A stretch of 64,000 nt of DNA from an uncultured Alphaproteobacteria bacterium (GCA_905236005.1 CAJONJ010000039.1:2612-66611), one strand, 5' to 3'. Shown: positions 1-25,498, counted from the first letter of the stretch. Numbers and translations are program-made. The notes: generated by a model not told the origin, from the letters alone.

Positions 1-2160
<2,160 letters not shown>

Positions 2161-2348
2161 TTATTATTCCTTTCTTTTTGCTATGTAAAACATAGCAATT
2201 TATGATATAATAAGCAAGGAAAAAGGGTATTTTATCGGCAAAAAAACAAAAAAAATTTGGAGAGAGGTTTTTTATGGTTATATTCTGATAAAGCACACAA
2301 AAAACAGTGTAAAAACAGTATATTACACATAACAAAAAGGCAACAAAC

Positions 2349-2918
2349 ATGAAATTTAAATTATTATATTATGGCGATATTTTAACAAACCCAAAAAAAC
2401 GTGCTCAACACATAGCGGACATACGTATGCAATTTCATCCACAGCTAAAAAAACTGGTTACTTTGAAACCTTGGGATAATCTGAATAAATTTATGATGCC
2501 TGATGCAACCAAAAGCCCTGTGATAACCAGACATGTTGGTGGTATGGATTGGAATCCGATTATTACATCTAATTTAAAAATGATTGCAGAGCTGGACATT
2601 TTGTTAATGCACCCAGAAATTGTTGGTGTTCCACATTCAGATATAGATAATCGTGTAAAAACTATTCTGGACGGATTACGTTGTCCACAAAACGAACATG
2701 AAATCGGACAAAATACACCACGTGATATTGGTCCGATTTACACCTTGTTGGACGACGATCACCTGGTAACAAAATTAAGTGTTAACACCAGCCATTTATT
2801 GGCAAATGATATTTTCCCATGCAACATGCAAACAACACCAGATTCTATATTTATGTTGATTGATGTAAATGTTCGTGTGACCGAAGGCACACTGGAAAAC
2901 CTGCCATTTATGGTATAA
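2349..2918 (+). CDS. hypothetical protein, 189 aa
   Basis: Intact ORF followed by a strong bidirectional terminator. No recognisable motifs. Confidence 0.4.
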   Translation: MKFKLLYYGDILTNPKKRAQHIADIRMQFHPQLKKLVTLKPWDNLNKFMMPDATKSPVITRHVGGMDWNPIITSNLKMIAELDILLMHPEIVGVPHSDIDNRVKTILDGLRCPQNEHEIGQNTPRDIGPIYTLLDDDHLVTKLSVNTSHLLANDIFPCNMQTTPDSIFMLIDVNVRVTEGTLENLPFMV

Positions 2919-2932
2919 AAAAATTAAAAAAA

Positions 2933-2957
2933 GGCCGGCAAATGCCGGTCTTTTTTT
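2933..2957. terminator. bidirectional intrinsic terminator hairpin GGCCGGCAAATGCCGGTC flanked by A-run and T-run
   Basis: Perfect GC-rich stem-loop between convergent genes, with an A7 run upstream and a T7 run downstream. Confidence 0.65.
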
Positions 2958-2968
2958 GATTGTTTATT

Positions 2969-4039
2969 TTACATAATTGCAGATGTGATTTGTTCTTGCA
3001 TTTGAAATGTTCCAAACACAACCCACCCAATTATAACAGCGACTAAAATGATACCAATACTGTTTAACACATTAGCTATACTTTCCATTTTACGAACAGA
3101 TTCTTCCATATAATCACGTGCAATTTGATTTATATTTTTATCAAAATCGTTCATATCAGCATAAATTATTAAATCACCTATGATTTCTTCACTTGGAAAA
3201 TCTTTACCAGTTAACGCTAATGCATTACCTAAATTTTCACCGTTTGCAATATAATGTAACGTTTCTTCTAAAACAGCAGACAAATATCTGTTTGAATTAT
3301 CAGCCAATAAACGCATCGCATCTGGAACACTGACCCCAGCAGACACCATCGCAGCCAAAGACATCAACCAACTGACCGAAGACTGTAATTTATATGTACT
3401 CCATGGTGGCAATTTATCAAAAAACGTTCTGATTCTTCCTGTCCATATTGGCAATGACAACCAAATCAAAGCTATCAAAGCTACAAACACTGCACCAAAA
3501 ACAAACCAATATTTATTTGCAAACTCAGATGTCCAAACCAACGATGCCGCTGTTCCATGCCAAACAACTTCACTGCCCGCAGCCTCTGCCAAAGGTGGCA
3601 CCAAATACACTCCAACCATAACAACTATACCCACAGTCAAAACAAACAAAAACAAAGGATACGCAACAGCATTTAACATAGCACGTTTAATACGCCTGAT
3701 ACCACCAACAACACGACCAACGTTTTCCAAAGAAATCAACAAAGATGAAACATTACCAGACATTAACAACAAAGTTTCTTCATATGGAACCCAACCACGT
3801 GTTGCTTCTGCAAAAGTCATACCACGTTCCAAATTTTTTTGTATTTCACGCATAGCAATCGCAAATGGTTCGTTTGGTTTTTTACCATTTTTTGATTCTA
3901 TCATTTCAATTCTATTTAAGGCATCCATCAAAGTAAAATTGTTACGCAACAATGATGCAACCTTACGCGAAATAGCCATACGCTTGTCAGCATCTAATTT
4001 AAAAACTAATTTTGCATAAAGTATTTCTAACTTGTTCAT
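2969..4039 (-). CDS. GspF/PilC-family inner-membrane platform protein of a type IV filament/T2SS-like system
   Basis: 356 aa with three hydrophobic segments and two cytoplasmic helical domains. Its size resembles type IVb platforms of the BfpE/TcpE/PilR kind. It lies immediately downstream of a GspE-type ATPase. Confidence 0.65.
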   Translation of the reverse strand: MNKLEILYAKLVFKLDADKRMAISRKVASLLRNNFTLMDALNRIEMIESKNGKKPNEPFAIAMREIQKNLERGMTFAEATRGWVPYEETLLLMSGNVSSLLISLENVGRVVGGIRRIKRAMLNAVAYPLFLFVLTVGIVVMVGVYLVPPLAEAAGSEVVWHGTAASLVWTSEFANKYWFVFGAVFVALIALIWLSLPIWTGRIRTFFDKLPPWSTYKLQSSVSWLMSLAAMVSAGVSVPDAMRLLADNSNRYLSAVLEETLHYIANGENLGNALALTGKDFPSEEIIGDLIIYADMNDFDKNINQIARDYMEESVRKMESIANVLNSIGIILVAVIIGWVVFGTFQMQEQITSAIM

Positions 4040-4042
4040 ATT

Positions 4043-5674
4043 TTAATACACCCATGGTCTGTCCAACAATCCAACCCAACGTTCTAATTCATCAACTCCA
4101 ATAACACCACGCAACATCAATTCAGTAGCAGCCTCTTTTAATGTACGTCCGTTCATTTTTTCAAGCCAAAAACGCAATGCTGTTTCTGTTTCACCAGATA
4201 GAACCAAATTTAAAAATTCACTGTTAGTAATAATTATTTCACCAGCTTTGACACGACCAGCTGTTCCTGTTCCTTTGCAGTGTTCGCATCCTTGTCCACG
4301 AACATAAGTTTGTTGTAAACCTAAATCACCCAAAGCTTCCATAACACGATGATATGCAGGATGTGTTGGTTTATCAATCAGCCTTTCCCGACAATATGGA
4401 CAAAGCTTTTTAAACAACCGCATTGAAACCAAACCACGCAACATAGTTTCATCTTTTAATTTAAAAGCCTCTACCCCCATATCTAATAAACGAGTCAACG
4501 CACCCATCGCAGAATTAGCATGCAACGTTGTCCACACATTATGTCCAGACAAAGCACCCTTAACCGTCAATTGTGCTGCAGCCAAAGTTCGTATTTCTCC
4601 AACCATCAAAGTATCTGGGTCACTTCGCAAAGCCGCCGCTAATGCTTCTGTAAATTTTTCTTCACGTTGTTCTTCGTTTAATGCATTTACCACAGGCATC
4701 TGATGTGCACCGAATATTTTTTGTTCAGCTGGGTCTTCCACAGTAATCAAATTTATTTCATATCTGCGTTCTTTTAACATCAATGCCATATTACGAACTA
4801 ATGTTGTTGATTTTCCAGATGATGTTGGTCCAGCAACAACAACTAACCCTGTTGGTGCTGCACGTAAACGCAACAATAATTTTTGTTCATATTCATTAAA
4901 TTCCTGTTCTGTCTTTAATCCTTCACTGGGGTTATCATACAGCAAACGCATAACAACATATTGACTGCCAAAAGAAATCGGATTAAATTGCATTCTGATG
5001 CCTAACACCCCAGCTGGCAAAAATAAATCTTTGGTTCCACGTAACGGTGTCCGACCATCTTTTAACGCAGTTTGATATTCATTTTGTGCATAACTAGAAT
5101 TAGAAATATCAGCTGATGCAAACGCAGCACGTGTAAAAGATTCCCCCCATTGTGAATTATATTCCAACACAGGTTGCATGCTGCCATCTATACGAAAATA
5201 AATTGTTGTTTGATCTGCGACTTCTATATGAATATCAGATACCTTTTGAGCAGCCGCACGTGCAATAATATCTACAAAATCCTTTTGCATCTGATTATCA
5301 TAATCTTGATGCGAATGAATATATGTTCCCAGCCGTTCATCATTTGTTTTATATATATTAGAAATCAAACCTAAATCGGAATAAAATGGGCTTTTAACCA
5401 ATTTGCCATTTTGTTTCAACAAATCCAAAAAAGCCAACACACGTCCATCATACCTGTGTGTTCTAGAAATAATCAATTCCCCACCAGAAAAATATGCCAT
5501 CAAAGCTTGACTGTCTTTCGGCAAAGCTAATTCATCAGCAGATGCTGTTAACAAACGATTATTATTAGCAAACAAATAATCCAAAATATCTTTACTGTTG
5601 GCATTTTCCAACCCAGCCGGCACAGATGGATTTTTAGAATTACTGTTCAAATCTAATTTATCTGTATCAACCAT
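4043..5674 (-). CDS. GspE/PilB-family secretion ATPase
   Basis: Walker A motif GPTSSGKST, Asp box, His box (TLHANSAMG) and the tetracysteine motif CPYC...CEHC that is typical of GspE/PilB. Confidence 0.85.
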   Translation of the reverse strand: MVDTDKLDLNSNSKNPSVPAGLENANSKDILDYLFANNNRLLTASADELALPKDSQALMAYFSGGELIISRTHRYDGRVLAFLDLLKQNGKLVKSPFYSDLGLISNIYKTNDERLGTYIHSHQDYDNQMQKDFVDIIARAAAQKVSDIHIEVADQTTIYFRIDGSMQPVLEYNSQWGESFTRAAFASADISNSSYAQNEYQTALKDGRTPLRGTKDLFLPAGVLGIRMQFNPISFGSQYVVMRLLYDNPSEGLKTEQEFNEYEQKLLLRLRAAPTGLVVVAGPTSSGKSTTLVRNMALMLKERRYEINLITVEDPAEQKIFGAHQMPVVNALNEEQREEKFTEALAAALRSDPDTLMVGEIRTLAAAQLTVKGALSGHNVWTTLHANSAMGALTRLLDMGVEAFKLKDETMLRGLVSMRLFKKLCPYCRERLIDKPTHPAYHRVMEALGDLGLQQTYVRGQGCEHCKGTGTAGRVKAGEIIITNSEFLNLVLSGETETALRFWLEKMNGRTLKEAATELMLRGVIGVDELERWVGLLDRPWVY

Positions 5675-5675
5675 A

Positions 5676-6374
5676 TTATTTCCCGATATTTAAATTTTCA
5701 GAAACACCGTCTTTTTCAAAAATAATTCCTTCGTTTAAAGATATAGATTTCACTCTGTATCCATCTAATTCTTTACCTACTGAAATTCTTTTAGTTTGCC
5801 CAGAAGAAATATTTTCTACGGTTGCCTGCAATTGATTACCAATACCAGCAATATTTATCAATTTATATCTAGATGCTAGATTTCCTGATTCTTGTTTTTG
5901 TTGTCCAGATTTTTTTTCAACAGATTGTTTTTCTATAGAATCTTCTAAACTTTCTTTTTGTCTTTTTAAACTTTCAGCTTGTGCTTCTAATTCTTGCTGT
6001 TGATGTTCTGCACGACCAGACAAAGTATCTAATTCCATTTGTAATTTTAATTTTTCAGCATTTAATCTTTCCAGCTCTAAATCTAATTGTGCACGTTCTT
6101 TTTCCAGTTGCAAAACTACTTTGTCTTGTTCCAACAAAGTTATCTTTTCAAACAAAGAACCAGACATATCATATTCATCCAAAGCAGCTACAGAAACCCT
6201 GTCTGCAAAATCATCATCAGCAACTTCATTTACTGTCGCAATTTCTTGTGTTTGTATAACCTCTGGTTGTGATAATTCTTCTGATTCATCAGCAAACTCA
6301 TATTCATCTGCATTTGCACAAACCCCAGAAATCACCAACATACAACATAAAAATATTTTTAATTTTTTTAACAT
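5676..6374 (-). CDS. periplasmic coiled-coil protein with PilP-like C-terminal beta domain
   Basis: N-terminal signal peptide MLKKLKIFLCCMLVISGVCA, a long heptad-rich E/Q/L coiled coil, and a C-terminal YKLINIAGIG...VGKELDGYRV...IIFEKDG segment that resembles PilP/GspC secretin-interacting domains. Confidence 0.35.
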   Translation of the reverse strand: MLKKLKIFLCCMLVISGVCANADEYEFADESEELSQPEVIQTQEIATVNEVADDDFADRVSVAALDEYDMSGSLFEKITLLEQDKVVLQLEKERAQLDLELERLNAEKLKLQMELDTLSGRAEHQQQELEAQAESLKRQKESLEDSIEKQSVEKKSGQQKQESGNLASRYKLINIAGIGNQLQATVENISSGQTKRISVGKELDGYRVKSISLNEGIIFEKDGVSENLNIGK

Positions 6375-6384
6375 ATTTTCACCT

Positions 6385-7662
6385 TTATTTTGTATAAATA
6401 ATTACTTCGTATTGCCACATACGTGTAACAGCATTCCACGCAACAGATGTCATATACACACCATCAAAATCATTAAATATATGCATAAATTCTGTTGGTA
6501 TTAATTTAGACGCAGCAGAAATTTCAACGATATTCACACTTTCTGTATCTACACCATTTGTCACAGTATCTGTTACAGGATTTATATCTGCACGTATATT
6601 TATCTGTTGAAAATTCGTAGTAATATCACGCACGGCACTGGCTATATCACGTTCATCCAATGATGCATACGTTTTTAATTGTGGTAATCTAACACGAACC
6701 ATAACTTCGTTTTCAGACAATTGCTGAACCATTGCACCAGGCATTAATTCTGCACCATTAAGATAAAATTCATTTATTGTTCCAAAATTACGTGCAAATG
6801 TAACAGACACAAAATCTTCACCACATTTTGCATAGGTTTGATTCCACCCGGGAATTGGCTGCATAACAAACGCAATAGCTTTATAGCATAATTTGGCACG
6901 TTCCATAACATTTGGTAAATAATCGTATGGAAATTCGATTGGTGTAACTTCTTGTTTTGCTATATCTAATTGTTTTGCTAATTCTTGTTTTTTTAATTCA
7001 ATATTACGTTTATATTCTGCAACTAATTCAGGATTAGTCTGCACAGGTGATGATGAAAAAAATACACGTCTTATTTTATCACGAAACAAAACCCCACCAA
7101 CCAACAGAACCAAAACAAAAAATATAATCGTTGGCCAAATAGAATTAAAAACATTTATTGGATGCAGTCTGGCAGAAACAGAAGGACGTATTAATTCAGA
7201 AATAAATTTTTCCTGTGCCTTAGGCATTCCCCACGATGCAGGCGCAAACAAACCACCCCAATCAGGAATATTTGATAATTCTGTATATAATTTACGTGCT
7301 TGTTCTGCTGTTTCAATTAAAACATCACGAATTATTACACCATTACGCACAGCCACCAGATAAAAATAATTATTTACCTGAAAAACTCCTAAAAAAGACA
7401 CAAATTCAGACAAAGAATCAACAATTTCAGCTGCCGCACTTGGTAAACCAACATAAACCCCTGTGTTTTTATCACCCAAACCAACCATGGATTTATAATC
7501 TACAAATAATGTATATTTTTTATCTATATTTTTAGATAATTGCTTTGCATAATTTAACGCAGTATTACCAACACTGACAGGCTGCCAAAACAAGCCCGTT
7601 GCAAATTTTTTACGATGAACTGTTATTATTTGCTTTATCAATTCTCTCTCTGTTATACACAC
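6385..7662 (-). CDS. bitopic inner-membrane protein with GspL/PilO-like topology
   Basis: 425 aa. A cytoplasmic N-domain of about 180 aa is followed by a single TM (IWPTIIFFVLVLLVGGVLF) and a periplasmic C-domain of about 220 aa. Its position upstream of the ATPase and platform matches GspL or R64 PilO. Confidence 0.3.
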   Translation of the reverse strand: MCITERELIKQIITVHRKKFATGLFWQPVSVGNTALNYAKQLSKNIDKKYTLFVDYKSMVGLGDKNTGVYVGLPSAAAEIVDSLSEFVSFLGVFQVNNYFYLVAVRNGVIIRDVLIETAEQARKLYTELSNIPDWGGLFAPASWGMPKAQEKFISELIRPSVSARLHPINVFNSIWPTIIFFVLVLLVGGVLFRDKIRRVFFSSSPVQTNPELVAEYKRNIELKKQELAKQLDIAKQEVTPIEFPYDYLPNVMERAKLCYKAIAFVMQPIPGWNQTYAKCGEDFVSVTFARNFGTINEFYLNGAELMPGAMVQQLSENEVMVRVRLPQLKTYASLDERDIASAVRDITTNFQQINIRADINPVTDTVTNGVDTESVNIVEISAASKLIPTEFMHIFNDFDGVYMTSVAWNAVTRMWQYEVIIYTK

Positions 7663-10783: not shown

Positions 10784-10860
<77 letters not shown>

Positions 10861-10871
10861 GAGCTTCAAAA

Positions 10872-10903
10872 CTTGCCCATCGGGGCAAGTTTTTGTTTGT
10901 TTT
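10872..10903 (+). terminator. intrinsic terminator after tRNA-fMet
   Basis: CTTGCCC-ATCG-GGGCAAG hairpin followed by TTTTTGTTTGTTTT. Confidence 0.65.
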
Positions 10904-10919
10904 CCAATATCTACAAAAA

Positions 10920-10969
10920 GTTCGAAAGTTGTCTTTTTGAAAAAGGCTATTTTTCTACTACTTTTGAAC
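10920..10969. repeat. about 50-nt dispersed repeat with 9-bp imperfect terminal inverted repeats (GTTCGAAAG...CTTTTGAAC), copy 1
   Basis: Aligns with the copies at 11854-11903 and 13222-13270. All three share GTTCGAAAGT, a central TTTnAAAAAnGC block and a terminal CTTTTGAAC. Confidence 0.5.
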
Positions 10970-11683
10970 CATAGAATTTTGTTTTTGTTGTAAAAGTATA
11001 TAATCTTTCATCATTTTTTGCACTGCACCCGGTAAATCTGTTTTAATTGCTTCTGGTGTTATATACTTATCAACAAACGGATTTATAAACTTTTCTTGAA
11101 TATGTATACCAAAAAATTTTATACCAATTAAGTCAACAATCCGTTCTTTGAAATTTTGTGGAACATTATATTTTTCAATTATTGGTTTTTCTATTAAAAT
11201 ATGAATAACTTCATGCAACATAGTATTCAATATCTTTTCTTGATTATCTGGATACCGTGACATACGAAATACAATTTTTGCTTTTTTATCAGATGCAAAA
11301 TACGAAGCACCATTACCATATGCACATAATATTTCTAATTCATTTGGCATTGTCGTGTTCCACGATTTTAACAAAGGAACCAAAAACTTACTTATTCCAC
11401 GTTCCATCATCGGTATAACATAAGATTTCATAATTGAATCGTATTTTGTTAAATCATTAACGTTATAAATTTCTTGTTTGAAAAATTTACTATATTTTGC
11501 TATGTCTTTGTCAGTAAGAGTTTCTTTTTCAAACATTTCTTTGACTATTGGATTCTCGGGATTTGGAACAAAATTATTCATTGTATATCCAAAATGTTTT
11601 AAATTGGTATGAAACTCATGATGCTCTTCTAAAATAAATTGCCACATTTCTTTTTGGGTCATCGGTCTTATTGTTATTTGCAT
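10958..11683 (-). CDS. hypothetical protein with HEXXH motif (putative zinc metallopeptidase-like), 241 aa
   Basis: Intact ORF containing MLHEVIHILIE. Lies inside the tRNA-flanked islet. Confidence 0.4.
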   Translation of the reverse strand: MQITIRPMTQKEMWQFILEEHHEFHTNLKHFGYTMNNFVPNPENPIVKEMFEKETLTDKDIAKYSKFFKQEIYNVNDLTKYDSIMKSYVIPMMERGISKFLVPLLKSWNTTMPNELEILCAYGNGASYFASDKKAKIVFRMSRYPDNQEKILNTMLHEVIHILIEKPIIEKYNVPQNFKERIVDLIGIKFFGIHIQEKFINPFVDKYITPEAIKTDLPGAVQKMMKDYILLQQKQNSMVQK

Positions 11684-11762
11684 ATTAAATCCTTTTTATA
11701 CTGATAATTATATCATAAACTTGTTTTTAAAATCTATTATTTCCTGTCTAACATCCAACAAC

Positions 11763-11828
11763 TCGACTCGAGAACTGCACACACTGCACAACCAGAATTT
11801 ACAAAACCGTCCATAAGGGCGGTTTTTT
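11763..11828 (+). ncRNA. candidate small RNA or repeat unit (TCGACTCGAGAACTGCACAC...) ending in an intrinsic terminator, copy A
   Basis: About 40 nt are conserved with copy B at 13004-13072 (CTCGAGAACTGCACACnnnGCACAACCAgAATTTAACAAAA). Each copy is followed by its own hairpin plus T-run. No ORF. Confidence 0.25.
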
Positions 11829-11853
11829 ATTGGATTCTTAATACCTTCACAGA

Positions 11854-11903
11854 GTTCGAAAGTATAAGTTTCAAAAATGCACGTTTTTGTTCAACTTTTG
11901 AAC
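11854..11903. repeat. GTTCGAAAGT...CTTTTGAAC repeat, copy 2, overlapping the start of the transporter gene
   Basis: See copy 1. The ATG at 11877 lies inside the element. Confidence 0.5.
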
Positions 11904-12845
11904 TTTTTTGCAATTTGTTTCCTTTTATGCTACAATTCCTATGCTATGAATTTACTAGGTGTCTTGGTTTCTTTTATCAGTCCGATGGCATATGCAGTAT
12001 CAAATATCTTTGATGCGTATGTGTCTGGCAGTGTTTTCAAGCGTATTCCAACAACGATATTTTATGTAAACCTGACCAACATTCTGGGGATTCTATGTTT
12101 GCCACTGTTCGGGTCAATTCATTCTTTGTCGCCAGCTGCGTGGTTGTTTGTGTTGTTATCGTCCATCATAAATGTTGGGTACCAGTTTCCGTATTTTGCC
12201 GCATTAAATAAAACAGACACATCGGTGGTGGTGGCTCTGTTTCAATTGAAAAAGGTCTTTATACCATTGTGGGCTTTTTTGATTGTTGGCGAAGTTTTAC
12301 ATCCGGTTCAATATGCCGGGTTTGGTATCATAATCTTGTTTTCATTGCTGCTGAATATAAATCCAAAGGCAAATATAAAAATCAATGCTGGGTTTTGGTT
12401 GATGTGTCTGACGGCTATAATACTGTCGTTTGAGGGTGCTTTCTACAAGGCATTACTGGAACATACAGATTGGGTGTCGGCGGCATTCTGGGTGTCGGTT
12501 ATATCTTTTGTTGTCCAATTCATGATGATATTCTGTCGTCCAGTACGCAAAGATATTGTTAAAAACTTTGGCAAATATCGCAAAAAGTTCGGTATGTTTT
12601 TGTTTGTGGAATTCTTTGATCAATTGGGATCATTCAGTCCTATATTCGCACTGTCGTTGATTCCGGTTCTGGTTGATTCTGGGATTCAATCGGTTCAGCC
12701 GATTTTTGTTGTGCTTTATGGTGTAATCTTGGCACGATTTTTCGGCAAGCGATTCCACGAAGACATTTCTAGCGGCACGATGATTAAAAAGATAGTTTGT
12801 TTCGTTATGATTGGTGCCGGTGTAATGATGACATTGATATCATAA
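11877..12845 (+). CDS. DMT-superfamily (EamA-like) membrane transporter, about 10 TM
   Basis: 322 aa, polytopic, two-repeat hydrophobic architecture. The true start is possibly the downstream Met (MNLLGVL). Confidence 0.5.
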   Translation: MHVFVQLLNFFAICFLLCYNSYAMNLLGVLVSFISPMAYAVSNIFDAYVSGSVFKRIPTTIFYVNLTNILGILCLPLFGSIHSLSPAAWLFVLLSSIINVGYQFPYFAALNKTDTSVVVALFQLKKVFIPLWAFLIVGEVLHPVQYAGFGIIILFSLLLNINPKANIKINAGFWLMCLTAIILSFEGAFYKALLEHTDWVSAAFWVSVISFVVQFMMIFCRPVRKDIVKNFGKYRKKFGMFLFVEFFDQLGSFSPIFALSLIPVLVDSGIQSVQPIFVVLYGVILARFFGKRFHEDISSGTMIKKIVCFVMIGAGVMMTLIS

Positions 12846-13003
12846 ATTTAAACACAACATAAGTATTTTCTTCATATTTTAACCTTTGTTTTACAAGCAT
12901 GATAATACAACAAATCCTACCCTTTTTTCAAACCTATTATTTCAAATCTGCTAACCCTAATTTCTCTTTCAACGCATCAATCTCTTGACCTATTTCTAAT
13001 AAT

Positions 13004-13072
13004 TCGGCTCGAGAACTGCACACCGAGCACAACCAAGATTTAACAAAAAGCATCCATTGTGGATGTTTTTTT
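13004..13072 (+). ncRNA. candidate small RNA or repeat unit, copy B, with terminator CATCCATTGTGGATG plus T7
   Basis: See copy A. Lies downstream of the transporter gene. Confidence 0.25.
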
Positions 13073-13203
13073 GTTAAATATGTGTGTTGTGTTGGGTTTG
13101 AGCCACCAAAAAAGGTGGTTCACTACAAGCGAGAGCCAGACGGAAGTATGGCGGTCAACCTACAAGGTTGACGAGTGCAGTGAGGCAAAAATTTCATTTT
13201 TAC

Positions 13204-13218
13204 CAAATCCATCTCCCG
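13204..13218 (+). repeat. 15-nt direct repeat of the tRNA-fMet 3' end (CAAATCCATCTCCCG); putative distal att site
   Basis: Exact 15-mer match to tRNA positions 10840-10854, 2.36 kb downstream in the same orientation. Confidence 0.4.
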
Positions 13219-13221
13219 TAA

Positions 13222-13270
13222 AGTTGAAAGTTTGATTTTAAAAAATACGATTTTTATAGTGCTTTTGAAC
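13222..13270. repeat. GTTCGAAAGT...CTTTTGAAC repeat, copy 3 (AGTTGAAAGT variant)
   Basis: See copy 1. Immediately follows the att-like repeat and overlaps the 3' end of the 13254 gene. Confidence 0.45.
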
Positions 13271-13847
13271 CGTCTTTTAATATTTTCCCTAAAATAGCCA
13301 TATCTAATTTTTCAAAATCTGGTTTATATAATTCAAATTTATCTTGCTGTTGAATCAATTTATCCCATAAAATATCAGATTGTTTTCTGGACATATTTGC
13401 AAAAACAGTTTTATCTTTTAAAACATATATTTTTATGTTTTTGTCTTTAATTTCCTGCATAATATCAATTGTAATAACATTTTTTATTTTCACATCTGTC
13501 AAAGAATAATATTCATCTTCTATATCATGTTTAAAACCAACAGAATCTAATTCATAAACATATGCTTTTTCTGGAACATTTTGCTTTAAACATTCAACAT
13601 ATAATTCATTATTTTTTACTGGGCTTTTATAACCGGTAGCAACTAATCGCATAATTGCATAAAGACGTGCACGTACAAAATCAGATGTTGCAAAAGCAGC
13701 AATTATTGGTGTTTTCATATTATTGATGTAACCTGGTTTCATACGAATAAAACCATCTGTTATTTTTATTTCAGACCCATGATAAAGAATTTTTGGTAAA
13801 CTGTTATTCATAACGGATATTATATCACAAACCATAAAATAATTCAA
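13254..13847 (-). CDS. hypothetical protein, 197 aa, translationally coupled to the upstream surface-protein gene (ATGA overlap)
   Basis: Intact ORF with no recognisable motifs. Confidence 0.4.
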   Translation of the reverse strand: MNYFMVCDIISVMNNSLPKILYHGSEIKITDGFIRMKPGYINNMKTPIIAAFATSDFVRARLYAIMRLVATGYKSPVKNNELYVECLKQNVPEKAYVYELDSVGFKHDIEDEYYSLTDVKIKNVITIDIMQEIKDKNIKIYVLKDKTVFANMSRKQSDILWDKLIQQQDKFELYKPDFEKLDMAILGKILKDGSKAL

Positions 13848-16833
13848 TTTACACTGACAGTATCGTCATAAATATAATAAACACCACTCGAAACACTTGT
13901 CCCAACTGGAATATTTACTTTCAAACTATTACCGCTTTGTAAATTACTGAAATCTGCATTCATTGGCACAAGTGTTGTTCCCATATTAGCATAAAAATCA
14001 GGAATGCCGTCATTATCAATATCAACATTTAATGACGGTGTCATTTGTTTTGTTCTGCGTAAATACACATATTTATCTCCAATATGTAATATATGACCAC
14101 ATTGTGCAGATTCCCACATACCAGCGGGTGCAAACAAACCACTTTGACAAGGTATTATTCCCTGATTGTTTATTTCATCAAAACTGTAAGTACCACCAGG
14201 ACAATAATTATTTACTGGACATTTCGAGCACACATTGCTGTTAGCTGGCAAATAATATCCATTATTACAAGACAAACTGCTTGCCACAACTTCTAAGCAA
14301 CCATTAACACTTGTGGTCGCACCATTTGCTGTACCGTCTGCTGTATATCCAGAATCGCATGTACATGTACTACGTGTATTCTTAGCTGGTGTGGAGCTGT
14401 TTGCGCCACATGCATAGCAAGATGTACTATCATATTTATAATAATTTGTCGCACACGTTTTACGTGCATAATATGTTGTTATAGCAGGGACTGCTGATGT
14501 AACTGGTGCAATTGTTGTAACGGTATTATCAGTAATATCCTGAGTTATTGCCCAACTTGTTGAAATATCATAATGTCCGTTACCACCTGGTGCAGGCAAA
14601 CTAATCGCTGGTAATGTGCACGCTGTATTGTAGAACAATTTTAATTGTGCATTAGTTGTACCTTCTGCCACACTAGCAACATAACATCCAATTCCAGACA
14701 ACCCCTCTATTACACCAGAATAACCGTTTTTATGTAATGTAATCATATAATAACAATCTGTCTGAACAGTAGAACCCACATCACTAGACCAACCCACACC
14801 TATCTCTGTCGCACAACTATTTATACCTTGATCAGTAGTATCAAAATACAATTGCCCCCCAGGGCACCAATTGCCAGCAGTGCAAGTTGTGCAAGTTTGC
14901 GAGTTTGCAGGTATATATTTACCTGCAGAACAAACTGTAAAACCATCCGCCAAGACGCAATCAGCAGAACTGGTCGATGTTTCTGTCAGTGTGATATCCC
15001 CAGGGGCACATTGGGTTCTTTGGCTGACTGAACCATAAGATGTCATACTAGCAGAAGAATAATAACCTATTCCAACATTTTCACAAGAGGACCCACCAAA
15101 TGTCCCCAAAACACCCCCAGCAACAAAATCGCCAGTTCCACTGTTACCAAAGAATCTACCACTAACCAGATCATACATACCAATTGCGTTATCAGACACA
15201 CGCCTAGCAGGTATAAAATCAAAAATTAACGTACTGTTTTCATACATTTTAAACCAATGTATGCGACCAGTTAACAGCGTGTCGTTACACCCACCAACAC
15301 AACCATTAGAAAACAATCTATATTTGTTATTTGAAATAATTGACCCACTAAAAGTACCAGATGTAGATGCGTTATCCACAGATAAAGATCTATTGTTACC
15401 TGTAAATTCGTATGTAATATGTTTTATCTCCCCAGCATTAAAAATTCCACCGACTGTTATTTTTGAACCTGTGCTCGAACCTTGAGCATTAGCAAATGCA
15501 ACCCATACACCAAATTTGTTTTCCTTAAAATTAGCCGCATGACCATTCAACGCGTCCTGATTTCCACCAAAATGCCCAAGAGTTCCAGAACCTTCTACCG
15601 AAGAACTATATTCAAGTTCCGCTTTAAAAGACGTTGAAGAAATCACATGGCCCGTATCAATATACTGTTTTCCATTTGCTTCTATATACGACAACCTTTC
15701 GTATTCACCTGTCCATTTTCCAGCAGGGCAACTGATTTTACAATCAGAAATAGACGTTTTTCCATCTTGTACATCACCATCATAACCCGATGGACACGGC
15801 AAACAGACACTTCCACTAAGATATTCCGCACCTGTACACGAGGTATGCTGAATTATCGCACAGGCTTTTTTGCTGTCCCAACTGTTTTTATACGCACTAT
15901 AATAAGTATCGGTAACATCATCTGTTCCATTTGGACAGCTTGTTACCATGTTGGATTTTTTAAATGCAGAATTAAATAAATTAGTAGCAGTTTGTCCATG
16001 TAACCCCAGGAAAGTATTACCAGGAATATATTGATTAGTCGTCGTAAAATTAACCTCAAAAAAAACGTATACATAAACATGTTGGCCGCAGCACCATCTA
16101 TATTTGGGAATAAATTATCTGGAAACACAGACAGCTTCTTGCATTGATAGAAAGCACTACGAAACATACTTTCTGCAGACCCATATGCATAACTAAACAA
16201 ACCATCAGGAATACCTGTCAAATTTGTACATTTATCAAAAACGGAACGAAACAAATTTTTCTTCGCGGTTGTTACACCAGAAAATAAATTCCCAGAAATT
16301 GTTTGCAACTCTGTACACCCGTTGCATAAATCAAAAAACGTTGGTTTGTCACTGTCATTAGTACCACCATTCAGCGTCGGAAAAGCCGAACCAATACTGC
16401 CATCTAAAGAAGCAATAAGAGTTGGTGTTCCACCGGTGCGTGTTGATATATTGTTGTTTGAAGCACCAAATCTGATTGCGGCACCAGATGAATCTTTATC
16501 ATTATTATAACTTGTTGTATTATATCCTGTTGCAAGTCCTGCAAATTTTATTATTCTTTGACCAGCCGTCGCATAAGTATGAGAGTATTCTGTCGGGGTA
16601 GTATTGTTATTTCGTGTAATGATTTCCACAGAGCTTCCATCATTCCAATCAACATAGAATATTCCTGATGCCGATAAAACAAATTTAAATACCGCATTTG
16701 CATTCAGGTTTGTCGTAGTTATTGTAAATTTTGTATCAACACAACCGTTTCCTGTATCTATTTCAGATGCCGTACACGCAACAGCCACTGTAATATTCAT
16801 CACGAATATACAAAGTGCACATATAAAACACAA
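13844..16833 (-). pseudogene. frameshifted or phase-variable large secreted surface protein (BspA-like LRR N-region plus Cys-rich CPxG repeat region), about 1000 aa if restored
   Basis: The track gives two ORFs (15943..16833 and 13844..15949) overlapping by 7 nt. The 3' 45 codons of the upstream ORF are low-complexity junk that begins exactly at the A8 tract at 16058-16065. Adding one A fuses the frames in phase (...NMFMYTFFFEVNFTTTNQYIPGNTFLGLHGQTATNLFNSAFKKSNMVTSCPNG...). The protein has an N-terminal signal peptide, LRR-like FxxCxxLTxIPDxLF repeats and many CxxCPxG motifs. Confidence 0.55.
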
Positions 16834-17002
16834 AAAAATATTTTTTAATTTCTTTTCCTTTTTTTTAGTTTTTTTGTGTCATAGCAAAAAAAACATTCCC
16901 TCCATATTAGGAATAATACTAACAAAATTGGATAATTTTATACAAGCATATTTTTGTTAAAAATTGCAGCTGATAACAATAAATAGAAACCATATTTTAT
17001 GG

Positions 17003-20000
17003 TTATATATTTTCATAAACACCGTATAAATCAGGACTTGGTTGTACAGTTTGTCCATCTGTAATTTTTTCTCGCAATCTTTTATTTGCTAATTTTAACG
17101 CATTAACAATACTTAATTTTCCAGGAACCATACTATTTGATTGTTCTAAATTTTTAATTCTGTCTGTTGGAACCAATGTTGGTTTATAATCTTTAACATC
17201 TTCTATGTTTATAATTTTATCTAATATTTTAATTTTTTTATGGTTATGATTGTATTTAACAGACATATTTTTATTTAAAATTTTAGATATCATTTTATAA
17301 AACAAATCATTTTTAATACCCATATCGTCTGTAAAGGTATCATTAACATTTTTATCAATAACACCTGATGTTTTAAGTGCAACAATAATATCAAAAAAAT
17401 CTTTATCGGTTAAACTTTTACCAGGATGGTGTTTACCATCTTCATCTATAAATGGCTTTTTATATTCAATTATATCAGACAAAGCCAACAAGCCACGTCT
17501 GACACATTCAAGATATTCAGAATGTTTTTGTTTTATCAATTCTTTTTCTATGACACTAGTATCTGGCACTTGTATATTTGGCATATTCAGCATCGGTTCA
17601 TATTTGTTTTCGGCAAAAAACATATTACGTAAATCAGATTGATAATATTTATACATAATCTTGGTTATGTATTTTTTTATTGTTTCATCATTATTTTGAA
17701 TATCGTTTATTGCTTTATTTAAAACATCTGATATTGATTTATCTTTTCTAGAATTCTGTATAATTTTATAAATTAACAACCCCAATAATCTTCTATCTAT
17801 ATCACTTGGTAAATTATCTATTTGTGCACCAGTATCAAAAATACCTATATGAACAACACCTTCTTGATCTGTATAAAAATTTTGCTGTCCAGCATGCCTA
17901 TCTGTATCCCATTTTTTACCAGATAACAATATTGCTAGTTCCAAAGCAACATATGCTTTTGCGTTATCATGTTGTTGTTTATCTGTATGTTTTGCACTGG
18001 TCAAAGAATCACCTTTGGCTAATTTCATAATTTTAAAAGCATTTTTATTATTTGGCATTGCACCAAACGCAACCCATTCAGCCACATCCACTTTATATTT
18101 TTGATTATTTAAACTGATTTCAAAAGGCGAATAATTATCAACAGCTTGTTTATATTTTTCATAATCTTTGTCGATATCTATTTCGTTATGACAAGATTTT
18201 TCTGCTTGTTCAAAAATATTTTTTAAAACACCAAATTTCTTTTCATCTCGCCACACCATAGATTTAATAGTTCCAGAAATAAAATCCAAATTTGTCATCA
18301 TTTTGTTTTGAATATTTTCACGCATTAACGCAACAACACAATCTTGGTTATCATATTTTACCTGAACTGTAACATAAATAGAACCAGCACCTAAAACATC
18401 ACCAACATAAGATATTTTACTATATTCTTCTGACGGCAAAGATTGTTTCAACATATCAAAAATTTCTTTACGATCTGGAACACTTGCTTTATCACGCAAA
18501 GTTGCTAGTTCTGTTCGTATTTCTGCTGGCAAAGATGGTAAATACGATAACATTTGTCCAAATTTTATAAATGCATCACCTTTGTATTGGAAAAAACCTT
18601 TTAATCCACGACCAATTTGTTGATTAGAATCTGTATTTTTTACAACATTGTTTGTTTTCACCATTGTTAATAATGTGCACAAATCAAAATTACGTTCCGC
18701 CATGGTTTCATTATTATATACAGATTCGATAACTACACCTATGGCGTTTTTTGTTTCTTCATCTGTTTTCATACTTTTAAATATTCTATTTAAAACAAAT
18801 TGTATTTTTTCGTCTGGATTTTTGCTGTAACCATCTAATAATGGATTCAAAAAATATGCCTGAACCGGTAATGGCGAATGTGAAAAATTATCATGAATTT
18901 GTTCTAAAACTTGTTTATTTCCCCACTCTTCTTTTCCAAAAAAAGGCTTATTTTGAATTGCTGATAAAAATTTATTGCAAGATTCATCTGTAAAATTATT
19001 TGTTAAAAATTCTATACCTTCTTCTGCTAAATTGCTGACACATAAAAAATCCACAACATTTTGTGCAATACGTACAGGCCAATCATATTTCACAGCATCT
19101 TCATTACCTGCTTTGCTTTTATATTTAGCATCAAATAAATTTGCAATTTCAAATTGTGCAGTAATTTTATCTGCTATTTTTTTACTTAAATTTTCAATAC
19201 ATATATTTATACCTTCTTTGTTTATTGTTTTTAAATTATCCAACCATTTTACACAAGAATCCACTTTGTTTAAATAATCCATTTGTCTGGTATCTTTACC
19301 CAAACGCACAGCCCAATAATTTGCGATATAATCTAATAATTTTTCCCTTTCGGTCATTACACCCAAACATCTTTTTTCTTTATATTCACCATATTCTTGC
19401 AATAAAATATTCACAGCTAATCTTAAACGATTGTTTGTTTCCTGTGTATTAAAATTCGTTTCGTTAATTTTATACTTGGTTATATCATTAACCAATATTT
19501 TTAACATATCGTTTTTATGTGTAAAATATGTAGAGAAAAATTTATATTTTAACATATAATCATATATATCAATTTTATCTTGAACTGAATATTTTTTATA
19601 TGATTCTACATTAATACGCTTATCAATAAAATTCTGTTGAGGCAGTTTCAGTCCTATAATAAAATGGTCAAATAATTTATTATCTTTTGAAAATTTTACA
19701 AAATCTATTACATCTAATTCATATTTAGCCATATAATTAAATAATACTAAATTAAAAATAAATTCATCACTATCTTTTAACGTATAACAAATATTATATA
19801 ATTCATCTTTATTTTTTGGTGGTGTTATACCCAGAAAATCTAATATTTTTTGTGTTTTGTTTGCATCATCTATATTAGAACCATTTGCTAATATATGATA
19901 AGCTAATGATATAAATTGTGAATATTTTAATACACCAGAATATTTTTCAATAACATATTTATTATTAATCGCATGTTCCAGAATTATTTCTGAATCTTTT

Positions 20001-21745: not shown

Positions 21746-21855
21746 AATTTTACCTTTATTTTTTTATTTTTCAGCAATAATTATAACAAATTTTACAGTT
21801 AAAAAAAACAGTTTTATGATATCTAGGACAATCTATTAAATTAAATATATTGATG

Positions 21856-22470: not shown

Positions 22471-22473
22471 GAA

Positions 22474-24888: not shown

Positions 24889-24891
24889 ATC

Positions 24892-25251: not shown

Positions 25252-25405
25252 GTTTTAAAAATGTTGAAAATATTAAAAATACATTATTTTTCAACTGTTT
25301 ATTATTTTACGATTTTTTTCAACAATTTTATAAAAAATCCCTAAAATCTAAGATTTTTTTGTTGAAAACTTGTTTAAAAAAAGTTTATTTTAATTTTCAA
25401 CAAAA
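25216..25405. promoter_or_regulatory. array of six TTTTCAACA / TGTTGAAAA 9-mers upstream of virB3 (operator or iteron-like; alternatively degenerate DnaA-box cluster)
   Basis: Plus-orientation copies at about 25218, 25289, 25315 and 25395. Reverse copies at about 25262 and 25360. All lie in a very AT-rich 250-bp divergent intergenic region between virB3 and rpmJ. Confidence 0.4.
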
Positions 25406-25498
25406 CTAACAGACATAATAAAAACAATAAATAAATATAATAAATATTTGATTTTTTATAAAACTGGTTTATAATTGCCCAGTAAAAAGGATTTTGAT

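Follow-up and report, generated by a model that had tools for sequence, protein, structure and literature searches.

Palindromes in a cassette array at tRNA-Met of a gut alphaproteobacterium: candidate attachment-type sites related to the 3' ends of large serine recombinase genes

The locus described here lies in a stretch of 64,000 nt (the window) from an uncultured gut or rumen alphaproteobacterium, a relative of Candidatus Enterousia, and raises a simple question: what are the three palindromes of about 50 nt that stand in it at gene boundaries? An earlier, sequence-only reading had likened them to Rickettsia palindromic elements (RPE) and MITEs or, alternatively, to a palindromic operator pair for a shared regulator. 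The three copies are where that reading had put them, all on the plus strand and in the same orientation, and measure 51-52 nt with one base added on each side (copy 3: 13222-13271). Their array lies directly 3' of a tRNA-Met gene (10784-10860), a contact that the reading had missed. It had missed, too, that 15 nt of the tRNA 3' end recur immediately ahead of copy 3 (13204-13218) and that the repeat unit, at ca. 135 nt, is longer than the 50 nt described. Each palindrome is the core, and the best-conserved part, of a junction module of that length, composed of a tRNA-like end (...CAACCA), a hairpin, a spacer and the palindrome, and these modules separate single-gene cassettes that follow one another head-to-tail from the 3' end of tRNA-Met. 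Read in the sense of the tRNA, a cassette consists of CAACCA, a short hairpin or terminator, a spacer, the palindrome, one cargo gene (in either orientation and with its own promoter), an X-box, and again CAACCA, which occurs in the window at 10855, 11789 and 13030. The features are as follows.

10784..10860, plus strand: tRNA-Met(CAT), the anchor of the array (ARAGORN, Rfam)
24 nt from the CCA end, plus strand: tRNA-Met T-loop GGTTCAAATCC, the putative B half-site
10855-10860, plus strand: CAACCA, the putative crossover region; boundaries of transferred cassettes fall at CAACCA
10861..10918, plus strand: proximal part of junction module 1, with GAGCTTCAAAAC, hairpin, T run and a spacer ending in TTCCAATATCTACAAAAA
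10872-10889, plus strand: hairpin of module 1, CTTGCCC-ATCG-GGGCAAG, then a T run
10919-10970, plus strand: palindrome copy 1, AGTTCGAAAGT...ACTTTTGAACC, holding the ORF241 stop codon
10958..11683, minus strand: cargo of cassette 1, ORF241 (241 aa, HExxH motif)
~11707-11718, minus strand: ORF241 promoter, an extended -10 element, TATGATATAAT
11766..11794, plus strand: X-box 1, the putative P half-site of cassette 1, ACTCGAGAA-N14-CAACCA (CAACCA at 11789-11794)
11795..11852, plus strand: proximal part of junction module 2, with GAATTTACAAAAC, hairpin CCGTCC-ATAA-GGGCGG (11807-11822) and spacer
11853-11904, plus strand: palindrome copy 2, whose reverse complement, KSSKVEQKRAFLKLILSN, is near-identical to the corresponding codons of the large serine recombinase (LSR) gene of locus L018
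11908..12845, plus strand: cargo of cassette 2, an EamA-family transporter (Pfam EamA, E = 1e-12)
13007..13035, plus strand: X-box 2, the putative P half-site of cassette 2, GCTCGAGAA-N14-CAACCA, 29 nt
13036..13075, plus strand: proximal part of junction module 3, with AGATTTAACAAAA and hairpin GCATCCA-TTG-TGGATG (13050-13065)
13076..13221, plus strand: insert of ~145 nt splitting module 3 and ending in a copy of the tRNA-Met 3' end, AAATCCATCTCCCG (13205-13218)
13222-13271, plus strand: palindrome copy 3, with a 1-nt deletion in the left arm, holding the ORF197 stop codon
13254..13847, minus strand: cargo of cassette 3, ORF197 (197 aa)

The terminal inverted repeats were confirmed: the outer arms AGTTCGAAAGT and ACTTTTGAAC pair with one G.T position, and an inner inverted repeat (A5-N4-6-T5) lies within them. 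The pattern GTTCRAAAG-N25-45-CTTTYGAAC is exact at copies 1 and 2 and is expected 0.00 times in the window (100 shuffles). Palindromes related to mobile DNA do stand at these gene boundaries and are not chance. Copy 3, in which one base of the left arm is deleted (AGTT-GAAAGT), was grouped with the other two by the repeat search (family D1; 69-81% identity over 36 nt) and was also recovered by a profile HMM of the family; pattern, repeat and profile HMM searches found no fourth copy within the 64-kb window. An HMM of the 136-148-nt module matches 10836-10972, which takes in the proximal part of module 1, and its positions 11-70 align to 13013-13076 in module 3. The stems of the module hairpins differ from one module to the next while their pairing is kept, and X-box 1 spans 29 nt from the start of the motif to the CCA-like end. 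The insert that splits module 3 is a candidate tRNA-like structured RNA, and no Rfam family matches it.

At the gene ends, the stops of the minus-strand ORFs (10958-11683 and 13254-13847) do fall inside copies 1 and 3. The ATG at 11877, taken as the transporter start by the gene callers and by the sequence-only reading, lies within copy 2 as described; as a true start it is doubtful because a sigma-70-like promoter of the transporter's own (TTGCAA-N17-TACAAT, 11908-11936) is followed by an in-frame ATG at 11946, the likely start. The ORF241 protein belongs to no Pfam or PADLOC family and the ORF197 protein to no Pfam family; judged by eye, ORF197 resembles cargo of tRNA-Gln arrays in other species (the 180-aa ORFs of L123 and L100). 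Cassettes 1 and 2 hold cargo only, with no recombinase inside, and the neighbours of the array in the window are DUF374/LpxK/LpxC, large secreted proteins, and then VirB4/VirB3.

Beyond the window, a scan of the genome collection with the element pattern found further copies in related genomes, with at least 120 stretches among the matches listed. These loci carry arrays of 2-6 modules beside tRNA-Met or tRNA-Gln, and in them, together with the first eight loci, the module HMM has 144 matches, 89 of them full length; within an array all matches point the same way, whichever way the genes run. The cargo region measures 377-1607 nt (one outlier of 3883 nt), and its gene lies in plus orientation in 25 cases and in minus in 17; the cassettes have extended -10 promoters of their own, TATGATATAAT or TGTGGTATAAT. 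GNAT acetyltransferases, nucleotidyltransferases, small kinases and genes of no known function are abundant in the cargo. In the cassettes the palindrome most often lies 58 nt from the tRNA-like end (53/88). Intact LSR elements lie tRNA-proximal to such modules in L064, and in L086 the P arm of an LSR element is followed by modules.

Evidently, from the identities between genomes, the cassettes have moved between species. An identical ORF241 protein is encoded on 13 contigs with differing neighbours, and its cassette is 98.5% identical between L001 and L002, against 78-81% in the flanking core; more generally, cassettes are 97-99% identical across species whose core genes are only about 80% identical, and other cassettes common to several MAGs share 94-99% over 720-930 nt. 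The orthologous locus in L034 (core 80.5% identical) lacks cassette 1 altogether, and its identity to the window jumps to 98.8% exactly from 11789, that is, at CAACCA. With three more clean CAACCA boundaries (L068/L114, L063/L128 and L004/window) the independent cases amount to four, and by these alignments CAACCA is evidently the cleanest boundary of the cassettes. The sequence-only reading would have been refuted by a lack of further copies together with ordinary conserved coding ends in relatives; on this point the further copies and the L034 locus without cassette 1 speak in its favour. Some boundaries are found elsewhere in the module: at the centre of the palindrome (L109/L020; L009/L080 versus L117), at its outer edge, or in the spacer.

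The source of the module is to be sought in LSR genes. In L018, an ORF (1853-3358) with Resolvase, Recombinase and Zn_ribbon_recom domains contains the palindrome as its codons SSKVEQKR..LSN, and its last codons overlap a tRNA-Gln gene. We collected 80 LSR loci by peptide patterns from elsewhere in the protein, independently of the palindrome region; in 73 LSR genes gathered in this way the palindrome encodes SSKVEQKR..LSN. It stands 27 codons before the stop and, in most of the 48 LSR loci with a detectable tRNA, 81 nt from the tRNA end, and the family that bears it spans many phyla. Searched with the module HMM, LSR 3' ends align to its positions 9-144, strongly in L129, L130 and L135 (E = 1e-12 to 1e-16) and more weakly in L132 and L140 (6e-07 and 3e-09). 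An LSR of the three-domain type lies beside the attachment site in L018, L055, L064, L120, L129-L135 and others, and is absent from the window. From these alignments, the junction module is clearly homologous to the last ~190 nt of an LSR gene that overlaps its tRNA target.

This origin bears on two other explanations. One, hardly credible by now, is that offered first: a MITE or RPE at gene ends, or an operator pair for a shared regulator. Its terminal inverted repeats of 9-11 bp, its overlap with ORF termini and its small, AT-rich alphaproteobacterial host do recall the short palindromic repeats of the RPE, MITE, REP and BIME kinds. Those repeats are dispersed, however, whereas the three copies in the window sit in one array and the others in oriented arrays beside tRNAs or inside LSR genes; neither a target-site duplication nor a duplicated flank was seen, and the mobile unit is the whole cassette bounded at CAACCA, not the 50-nt repeat. 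RPE are palindromic repeats of 100-150 bp, found in-frame in ORFs as well as in RNA genes and dispersed through the genome. They were rejected as candidates at 51-52 bp against 100-150 bp, with ORFs that run only a few codons into the edge, in different frames and not as in-frame insertions. One orientation per array regardless of gene orientation speaks against this explanation too, and neither a MITE nor an operator explains why recombinase ORFs of many phyla contain the sequence and why its distance to the tRNA site is fixed there.

The other explanation takes the palindromes for inert relics of decayed recombinase genes, the arrays being shuffled only by homologous recombination between the ~135-nt modules. 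We consider it very improbable, even though the module so clearly derives from LSR 3' ends, longer LSR remnants persist by tRNA-Gln in L059 (residues 440-501) and deeper in the L068 array (residues 332-501, 26% identity), and breakpoints are not all at one position, as homologous exchange predicts. Against it, arm columns are at least 90% conserved over 81 distinct cassette palindromes, with interiors (30-70% per column) diverged beyond recognition, and in dozens of unrelated cassettes the LSR-derived remnant goes exactly as far as the right arm's outer edge and no further. Moreover, the conserved stretches in modules are mostly shorter than 20 nt, a poor substrate for RecA, and the four boundaries named above fall exactly at CAACCA.

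The palindrome is also constrained as nucleic acid. In the LSR loci the arms change together: AGTTCGAAAGT/ACTTTCGAAC, AGTTCTGAAG/CTTCAGAAC, AGTTCGCAAGT/ACTTGCGAAC and AGTTCGAGAGT/ACTCTCGAAC. Paired arm cells amount to 78.5%, against 25-45% when the partner columns are slid, and 65 cells have changed on both sides, a number reached in 0/500 shuffles; at codon 449 (Ser) the synonymous third base follows the second base of codon 463. As judged from these patterns, the palindrome is clearly a nucleic-acid-level element within the LSR reading frame, with co-varying arms and a constant spacing to the end of the tRNA.

Co-variation could also be base pairing and not a matter of protein half-sites, if the palindrome worked in single-stranded, folded form (as RNA stem-loop, DNA hairpin or cruciform) and was itself the recombination substrate or a structural signal, like the folded bottom strands of integron attC sites. 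Compensatory changes in the arms are strong, and on the tRNA-sense strand arm mismatches are G.T in 36 cases and A.C in 4 (81 unique cassette palindromes), with the same bias in LSR genes (50 versus 14); this G.T excess favours single-strand folding over pure duplex recognition, but shared ancestry, inheritance from a few ancestors, could also yield it. Conserved ends with a variable centre, as in attC, and the boundaries at the palindrome centre are in keeping with folding as well. Folding as single strands, a check of the kind proposed by the sequence-only reading, separates the copies: copies 1 and 2 outdo shuffled sequence (z -2.1 and -2.3), copy 3 does not, and a loop of ~29 nt makes for a weak hairpin. 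Serine recombinases act on duplex DNA, and the arrays inspected had neither a tyrosine nor a HUH recombinase next to them. Nor would pairing explain why the outermost GTTC...GAAC never varies, where it would permit change, or why a single, unpaired arm motif stands in the P half-site at a fixed 29 nt. On balance we regard the folded strand as unlikely.

Less likely again, and improbable, is that the palindrome serves mainly as a bidirectional terminator or insulator between the cassettes and the tRNA gene, isolating the expression of the cargo. At other loci many interiors do have an inner GC-rich hairpin with a T run behind it (e.g. GTGGCGAAAAATCGCCAC-TTTTTT), stop codons of minus-strand cargo lie inside the palindrome, and T-rich sequence, then a promoter, often comes after the right arm. 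Termination needs structure, however, and not an invariant arm sequence of 9-11 nt; the copies in the window have only weak A/T inner stems, and within the LSR ORF a terminator 27 codons before the stop would truncate the mRNA. Each module, besides, already has its separate GC-rich hairpin with a T run, whose stem drifts with compensation and which fits an intrinsic terminator (GC-rich stem-loop and U tract).

The geometry of the sites leads back to the recombinase. LSR sites of the A118, Bxb1 and phiC31 type comprise an attP of ~50 bp and an attB of ~40 bp, and in the half-site model of Rutherford and Van Duyne, P half-sites reportedly have their outer motif 5 bp further out from the centre than B half-sites. 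In our loci the non-tRNA motif G[TC]TC[GA]A[AG]A...CAACCA always spans 29 nt (9 distinct sequences in 3 sequence families, among them the far ends of LSR elements in L064, L086 and L130), while the counterpart distance in tRNA-Gln and tRNA-Met is 24 nt. The arm motif in the P half-site is thus 5 bp further out than in the tRNA, and this offset, a signature of LSR attP/attB pairs, supports reading the two as LSR half-sites. L147, with palindrome arms GTTCTGAAG, has a candidate far end GTTCTGAA with the same outward shift of 5 nt (27 versus 22 nt); it is the only far end found for the lineage with GTTCTGAA arms. In such lineages the T-loop of the tRNA is still GTTCGAA, which argues that the arms are not simple mimics of the T-loop. 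When candidate far ends from all loci are plotted as a histogram, 29 nt is not enriched, and no clear inverted motif was seen at the expected spacing for the right half-sites P' and B'.

With moderate confidence, we therefore favour a reading, built from sequence comparison, in which the palindromes are cis-acting LSR sites of attP geometry kept by recombinase-less single-gene cassettes. The cassettes would be miniature integrative elements that depend for their movement on a cognate LSR acting in trans; the window encodes no LSR (tblastn, 64 kb) and no recombinase is found among the scanned ORFs flanking the array, so that mobilisation in trans is an inference. Crossover would take place within CAACCA; the T-loop of the tRNA (GTTCRAA, 24 nt from the CCA end) would be the B half-site and the X-box the P half-site (G[CT]TCGAGAA, at 29 nt from its CCA-like end). 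The palindrome itself, as two inverted P-type motifs in a 25+25-bp attP geometry, would be a second, symmetric binding site for an LSR dimer, ~90-110 bp from the crossover site, which may be needed in cis for excision or integration or may allow occasional cassette exchange at its centre; in an alternative form, the same site might be extruded as a hairpin.

Canonical LSR rules (attP x attB only) give no account of tandem arrays. To our knowledge, canonical LSRs have neither an accessory site nor tandem arrays of recombinase-less elements, and we know of none that needs such a site. The likeness to their att sites consists in the ~50-bp and ~40-bp sizes, the outer inverted motifs, displaced by 5 bp in P (29 versus 24 nt here), and the short core identity: the same CAACCA occurs at both ends of a cassette and at the boundaries of transferred DNA, some other boundaries lying elsewhere in the module. 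The palindrome differs in that it is not the crossover site but a putative second, symmetric P/P-type site in the recombinase's own coding sequence, 81 nt from the tRNA end. Accessory sites are known from small serine recombinases: sites II and III of Tn3/gamma-delta res, and site II of Sin res. These likewise provide a second dimer-binding inverted repeat at a fixed distance from the crossover in a module of ~100-120 bp, and the spacings of 58, 81 and 104 nt found here are steps of about two helical turns. Here, by contrast, another recombinase subfamily is concerned, binding is putative, the site lies in coding sequence, and the outcome is integration or excision at a tRNA and not resolution.

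Recombinase-less elements stacked by a tRNA gene are also a feature of CIMEs and tandem accretion, and the cassettes share with CIMEs att-type sites on both sides, no recombinase inside, and cognate LSR elements in related genomes. Tycheposons and their degenerate remnants in Prochlorococcus islands resemble them in that newer arrivals lie by the tRNA, partial tRNA copies occur in the island and the host is streamlined (bioRxiv 10.1101/2020.12.28.424599). Of 937 tycheposons, 910 are tyrosine recombinase elements (bioRxiv 10.1101/2020.12.28.424599), whereas a serine recombinase is involved here. Unlike either kind, the present units are uniform, very small (cargo of 0.4-1.6 kb) and single-gene, with a conserved 135-nt module and an embedded palindrome that has no counterpart there.

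The closest parallel in organisation is the integron: arrays of mostly single-gene cassettes exchanged between species; one imperfect palindrome per cassette, placed like attC where the cargo ORF ends, its outer parts conserved and its middle variable; and cargo rich in GNAT acetyltransferases, nucleotidyltransferases, small kinases and genes of unknown function. The differences are as plain. Here a tRNA gene anchors the array, a serine recombinase gene is the source of the site, and the main boundary, at CAACCA, lies ~60 nt from the palindrome. Integron cassettes are mostly promoterless, in one orientation and expressed from Pc; those described here have their own promoters and both orientations (25 versus 17). 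Neither an IntI tyrosine recombinase nor attI was found beside the array in the window, and no Phage_integrase-family gene among the called genes of L001-L006. The attC core RYYYAAC...GTTRRRY is satisfied on neither strand: the element reads 5'-GTTCGAAAG...CTTTYGAAC-3', with GTT/AAC outermost and not inner as in attC. Integrons are said, after work by Cury et al. in 2016, to be absent from Alphaproteobacteria.

A more far-reaching version, which we put forward tentatively, would make the arrays a serine-recombinase counterpart of the integron. A widespread, tRNA-targeting LSR family with a second, symmetric recombinase site in its own coding sequence would have given rise, by this site and the att core together, to a portable ~135-nt module with two recombination sites per cassette, co-opted in reduced-genome gut Alphaproteobacteria so that recombinase-less single-gene cassettes are captured, stacked at tRNA-Met and tRNA-Gln, exchanged from species to species and now and then swapped at the centre of the palindrome. 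No such system was found in the literature searched.

If true, gene-cassette arrays would not be unique to integrons and tyrosine recombinases, the attachment module of a serine recombinase playing the same role. The 51-bp palindrome is a clear DNA or RNA signal overprinted on the protein sequence of a large, phylum-spanning LSR family, where it forces paired amino-acid changes (K/S, E/Q, Q/A). LSRs are tools of genome engineering and are thought to need only a minimal attP and attB; an accessory site or built-in directionality element, if real, would matter for predicting LSR sites and for controlling integration versus excision. For the little-studied, small-genome gut and rumen lineage itself, the array would apparently be a main route to accessory genes, and acetyltransferases, kinases, nucleotidyltransferases and transporters would be among the functions so gained.

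The array begins 58 nt after a tRNA-Met(CAT) gene and contains three palindromes, whose positions in the sequence-only reading were confirmed. The search pattern of that reading matches copies 1 and 2 exactly (chance expectation 0.00), and copy 3 lacks one base of its left arm.

Palindromes of the array, located by sequence, and the tRNA gene at its 5' side
10784-10860, tRNA-Met(CAT), 5' neighbour of the array
10919-10970, + strand, palindrome copy 1
11853-11904, + strand, palindrome copy 2
13222-13271, + strand, palindrome copy 3

Pattern and profile scans of the whole 64 kb found no fourth copy. The palindrome is nested, with outer arms AGTTCGAAAGT/ACTTTTGAAC and an inner A5...T5 repeat. Fifteen bases of the tRNA-Met 3' end are repeated at 13204-13218, immediately before copy 3. 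The EamA transporter gene, cargo of the second cassette, was called from an ATG inside copy 2 (11877), giving 322 aa; a good -35/-10 pair lies at 11908-11936, 3' of this ATG and 10 nt 5' of an in-frame ATG at 11946, a promoter position that suggests a nearly leaderless product of 299 aa starting at ATG 11946.

The expectation of further copies beyond the window was borne out in many related genomes; the notion of a 50-nt repeat unit had to be given up, the unit being longer and bounding mobile cassettes. Among the matches listed for species-representative genomes, the pattern AGTTCGAAAGT-N30-40-CTTTYRAAC is found in more than 120 stretches, nearly all from uncultured gut or rumen Alphaproteobacteria, many of them Candidatus Enterousia. 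Many matching loci hold 3-6 copies at a spacing of about 750-1650 bp. A profile of the whole junction module, from its tRNA-like end to the palindrome (136-148 nt), gave 144 matches (89 of full length), always in a single orientation within any array; in arrays with a tRNA inside the locus this is the sense of the adjoining tRNA-Met or tRNA-Gln. Read in that sense, the unit consists of CAACCA, a stretch of about 12 nt, a hairpin with a T run (its stem sequence varies and its pairing is kept), a spacer (..TTCCAATATCTACAAAAA), the palindrome, a cargo gene, and a conserved stretch, the X-box, that again ends in CAACCA. There is one cargo gene per unit, in either orientation and with its own extended -10 promoter, and cargo regions measure 377-1607 nt (one outlier, 3883 nt).

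The origin of the module is indicated by copy 2, whose reverse complement, KSSKVEQKRAFLKLILSN, is at the DNA level nearly identical to codons of a 501-aa ORF in a related locus, L018. From its Resolvase, Recombinase and Zn_ribbon_recom domains this ORF is a large serine recombinase (LSR). The final codons of the ORF run into the 3' end of a tRNA-Gln on the opposite strand, and relatives of this LSR, from several phyla, adjoin tRNA-Pro, Asp, Val, Glu, Asn and Gln. The module profile aligns over almost its whole length with the 3' ends of Enterousia-type LSR genes. No LSR gene is encoded in the window, and no recombinase is among the scanned ORFs flanking the array. The palindromes very probably belong to a cassette-boundary module of LSR origin, and the earlier readings as MITEs, RPEs or operators were rejected. 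A phage origin was also discarded, the palindrome pattern matching just 5 times in 2.9 million viral contigs. Joining L018 and L086 into one map of the same contig was abandoned because the two stretches do not overlap. Direct repeats of tRNA 3' ends that would delimit the LSR elements were absent at 14 nt in the 8-kb loci, and 7-nt matches were mostly chance. Members of this LSR family carrying the same palindrome are also present on contigs assigned to Spirochaetes (L047, 794-844, labelled Brachyspira) and to candidate-phyla-radiation bacteria (the Patescibacteria loci L013, L025, L026, L051 and L066). L047 is 97-99% identical over about 830 nt to the alphaproteobacterial loci L036 and L049, reflecting either recent inter-phylum transfer or mis-binning.

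In the LSR genes the palindrome is part of the reading frame. We collected 80 LSR homologues from metagenomes with peptide patterns that lie about 120 and 340 residues N-terminal to the palindrome region, so the sample is unbiased with respect to the palindrome itself. In almost all 80, the 51 nt encoding SS[KEQR]..[SQAT]N form a palindrome whose arms change in concert.

Peptide types and palindrome arms in the LSR genes
SSK..LSN, left arm AGTTCGAAAGT, right arm ACTTTCGAAC
SSE..LQN, left arm AGTTCTGAAG, right arm CTTCAGAAC
SSQ..LAN, left arm AGTTCGCAAGT, right arm ACTTGCGAAC
SSR..LSN, left arm AGTTCGAGAGT, right arm ACTCTCGAAC

Among the 73 distinct LSR sequences, 78.5% of arm cells are paired (25-45% with slid partner columns), and changes on both sides affect 65 cells, a number reached by 0 of 500 shuffles. 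Of the two co-varying positions, one is a synonymous site, the third base of a serine codon, and varies with the second base of codon 463, which encodes S, Q, A, T, R or L, yet always ends in G. Co-variation at a synonymous site places the constraint on the nucleic acid. Arm conservation in the cassettes is at least 90%, whereas the interiors have changed so far that the ancestral codons can no longer be recognised; the arms are therefore under selection even without a recombinase ORF.

The distance from palindrome to tRNA 3' end is also regular: 81 nt in most of the 48 LSR loci with a callable tRNA, 83 nt for tRNAs without an encoded CCA, and 104 nt for a Glu/Lys subgroup. The equivalent distance in the cassettes is 58 nt in 53 of 88, and the three classes differ by about 22-23 nt, or about two helical turns. 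Within this interval the LSR codons KPF..NG form a second palindrome (L018, 3280-3325; L130, +10 to +40 after the CCA end in the tRNA sense), CCGTTC/GAACGG or CCGTTCAA/TTGAACGG, again with GTTC...GAAC; in the cassettes its place is taken by an unrelated GC-rich terminator hairpin.

Locus L130 contains an intact element, in which a tRNA-Gln is followed by an LSR and five cargo genes, including one for an AriA/HEC-02-like ATPase. Its far end reads AGTTCGAAATTCGTTTGCTATCGTCAACCA, then AGATAGACAAAAC and a hairpin; the stretch that opens with GTTCGAAA and closes at the CCA-like end measures 29 nt. The T-loop GTTCRAA, which we read as the B half-site, lies 24 nt from the CCA end in both tRNA-Gln and tRNA-Met. 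Outside tRNAs, the motif G[TC]TC[GA]A[AG]A...CAACCA measures 29 nt in nine of nine distinct sequences from the loci examined, and these fall into three unrelated families: the X-box, the far ends of L064, L086 and L130, and a type in L030 and L140. An outer motif placed 5 bp further outward is the mark that distinguishes LSR attP from attB half-sites in A118 integrase-DNA structures. In L147 the palindrome arms are GTTCTGAAG and the candidate far end carries GTTCTGAA, 27 nt from a shared GGAGC (22 nt for the tRNA-Asn counterpart); in this one element of its lineage the P-arm motif therefore follows the palindrome arms and not the invariant T-loop. Over all LSR lineages the P-arm test gave no enrichment at 29 nt, probably because most far ends lie beyond the 6-kb flanks; the informative loci were L130, L064, L086 and L147 only. 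The palindrome itself is composed of two inverted P-type motifs (25 + 25 bp), a geometry that would make it a symmetric attP-type site. The central dinucleotides of the window palindromes, AG and TG, differ from the presumed core AA.

Two other interpretations of the X-box were dropped. Minus-strand ORFs at 11708-11791 and 12937-13053, upstream of modules, share WLCSVCSSR[AV]ELL, and the stretch first looked coding from an AGT/TCG serine swap and apparent protein-level conservation. Small CxxC peptide genes were rejected since the stretch is read as a P half-site, the distance of the motif from CAACCA being a constant 29 nt, and indels break the "ORF" in other loci; the ORFs coincide with the X-box and are unlikely to be genes, and gene callers might take them for small zinc-ribbon peptides. 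Read as a degenerate tRNA 3' half, the X-box showed no consistent T-arm or acceptor register. Rfam returned tRNAs only, even at permissive thresholds.

Cassette boundaries were placed by comparing related loci. L034, a goat MAG locus with a core 80.5% identical to the window, lacks cassette 1 and is the kind of orthologous locus proposed for comparison; its identity to the window rises to 98.8% exactly at 11789, where the second CAACCA starts. In three further pairs (L068/L114, L063/L128 and L004/window) shared and unrelated sequence likewise meet exactly at CAACCA. Breakpoints elsewhere are in the minority: the palindrome centre for L109/L020, a half-palindrome for L117, the left arm's outer edge for L123/L100 and the spacer for L035/L020. 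Palindrome, spacer and hairpin are linked to the cargo on their right and the X-box to the cargo on its left, a profile that agrees with CAACCA as the main boundary. A crossover only at the palindrome centre, prompted by a divergence step in the palindrome of ORF241 (the 241-aa cargo ORF of cassette 1) and by the L117 half-palindrome, was rejected on this linkage analysis and the four clean CAACCA boundaries; exchange at the centre remains as a putative minority event.

In the mechanism we propose, the palindrome is predicted to be a second binding site for an LSR dimer, required in cis, with a possible role in the control of excision or synapsis and perhaps an occasional one as a point of exchange. 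It is quite possible, if short of probable, that the palindrome works as such a duplex site. To our knowledge, canonical LSRs need no accessory site, which counts against this reading, nor would they keep integrating at an attB that has been used, a rule that makes the growth of arrays hard to account for. In L064 an intact LSR element lies tRNA-proximal and is followed by a further module, an arrangement that fits the entry of newcomers at the tRNA. The palindrome could instead act as a folded strand, which we consider unlikely. The folding check, run on single strands, found copies 1 and 2 modestly better than shuffled sequence. On the tRNA-sense strand of 81 distinct palindromes the cassette arm mismatches are G.T in 36 cases and A.C in 4, with the LSR genes biased in the same direction; unless due to shared ancestry, the excess suggests that a single strand folds, as attC does.

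Some loci carry a conserved insert, about 150 nt long, either between module hairpin and palindrome or straight after tRNA-Met.

Copies of the tRNA-like insert
Window, 13076-13221
L002, 12560-12712 and 10824-10975
L034, 7690-7842
L006, 902-1055
L035, 3230-3395
L020, 320-486

Its fold is closed by an acceptor-like stem (GTTGTG..GGG / CCC.GCAAC), its ACCA end is a copy of that of tRNA-Met, two internal hairpins differ between two clades by compensatory changes, and the sequence includes GGTGGTTCA, the 5' half of the tRNA-Met T-arm. No Rfam family matched it; it could represent a small RNA gene of tRNA-like form or else the relic of a T-loop event. After the array, at 13844-21745, come three very large Cys/Thr-rich predicted proteins (701, 296 and 1580 aa) whose sole match is a weak one to Peptidase_M48; the block is about 78% identical in L002 and partial in L067. 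In L020, L024, L044, L116 and L127 the tRNA-Met array directly precedes homologues of the window from about 21856 to 24888, so the whole 11 kb from the tRNA to 21.8 kb is a variable region. Just past it, at 22474-25251, are type IV secretion genes, VirB4/TrbE-like (804 aa) and VirB3-like (119 aa). GC content is 24-30% at 18001-28000, a stretch overlapping the 1580-aa ORF and these genes, against 33-38% elsewhere in the window.

With integrons the arrays share single-gene cassettes, palindromic boundary sites with conserved ends, the kind of cargo and inter-species exchange, but they lack IntI, an attC core and a common promoter. Integron attC sites proper were rejected: the arms do not fit RYYYAAC/GTTRRRY and no integrase lies beside the array. 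With CIMEs (cis-mobilizable elements) and tycheposon remnants they share the class of recombinase-less satellites of integrative elements. Literature searches on Enterousia, serine recombinase cassette arrays, integron-like serine systems and LSR accessory sites yielded nothing relevant, and for uniform mini-cassettes with a coding-sequence palindrome we found no apparent described counterpart.

Movement of cargo between species is illustrated by ORF241, whose protein is identical on 13 metagenome contigs with different neighbours each time (Fic, HD, SHOCT-like, EamA and LPS genes); DUF374-LpxK-LpxC is present on every one of these contigs with enough flank. Between the window's own contig and L002, core genes are 78-81% identical and an 883-nt block with the ORF241 gene 98.5%. 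Of 30 scanned cargo proteins, four are GNAT acetyltransferases (Acetyltransf_1); other cargo comprises histidine phosphatases, P-loop kinases, nucleotidyltransferases, NUDIX, RNase T, radical SAM, serine hydrolase and ADP-ribosyltransferase, together with EamA, Fic and HD proteins. The L130 element (4001-5880; 6001-7506) encodes a 444-aa ABC/OLD-type ATPase and a 174-aa partner, the ATPase matching the defence families HEC-02A (E = 7e-31) and AriA (E = 2e-21). From this match, full-size elements may ferry anti-phage systems, whereas the mini-cassettes carry small enzymes.
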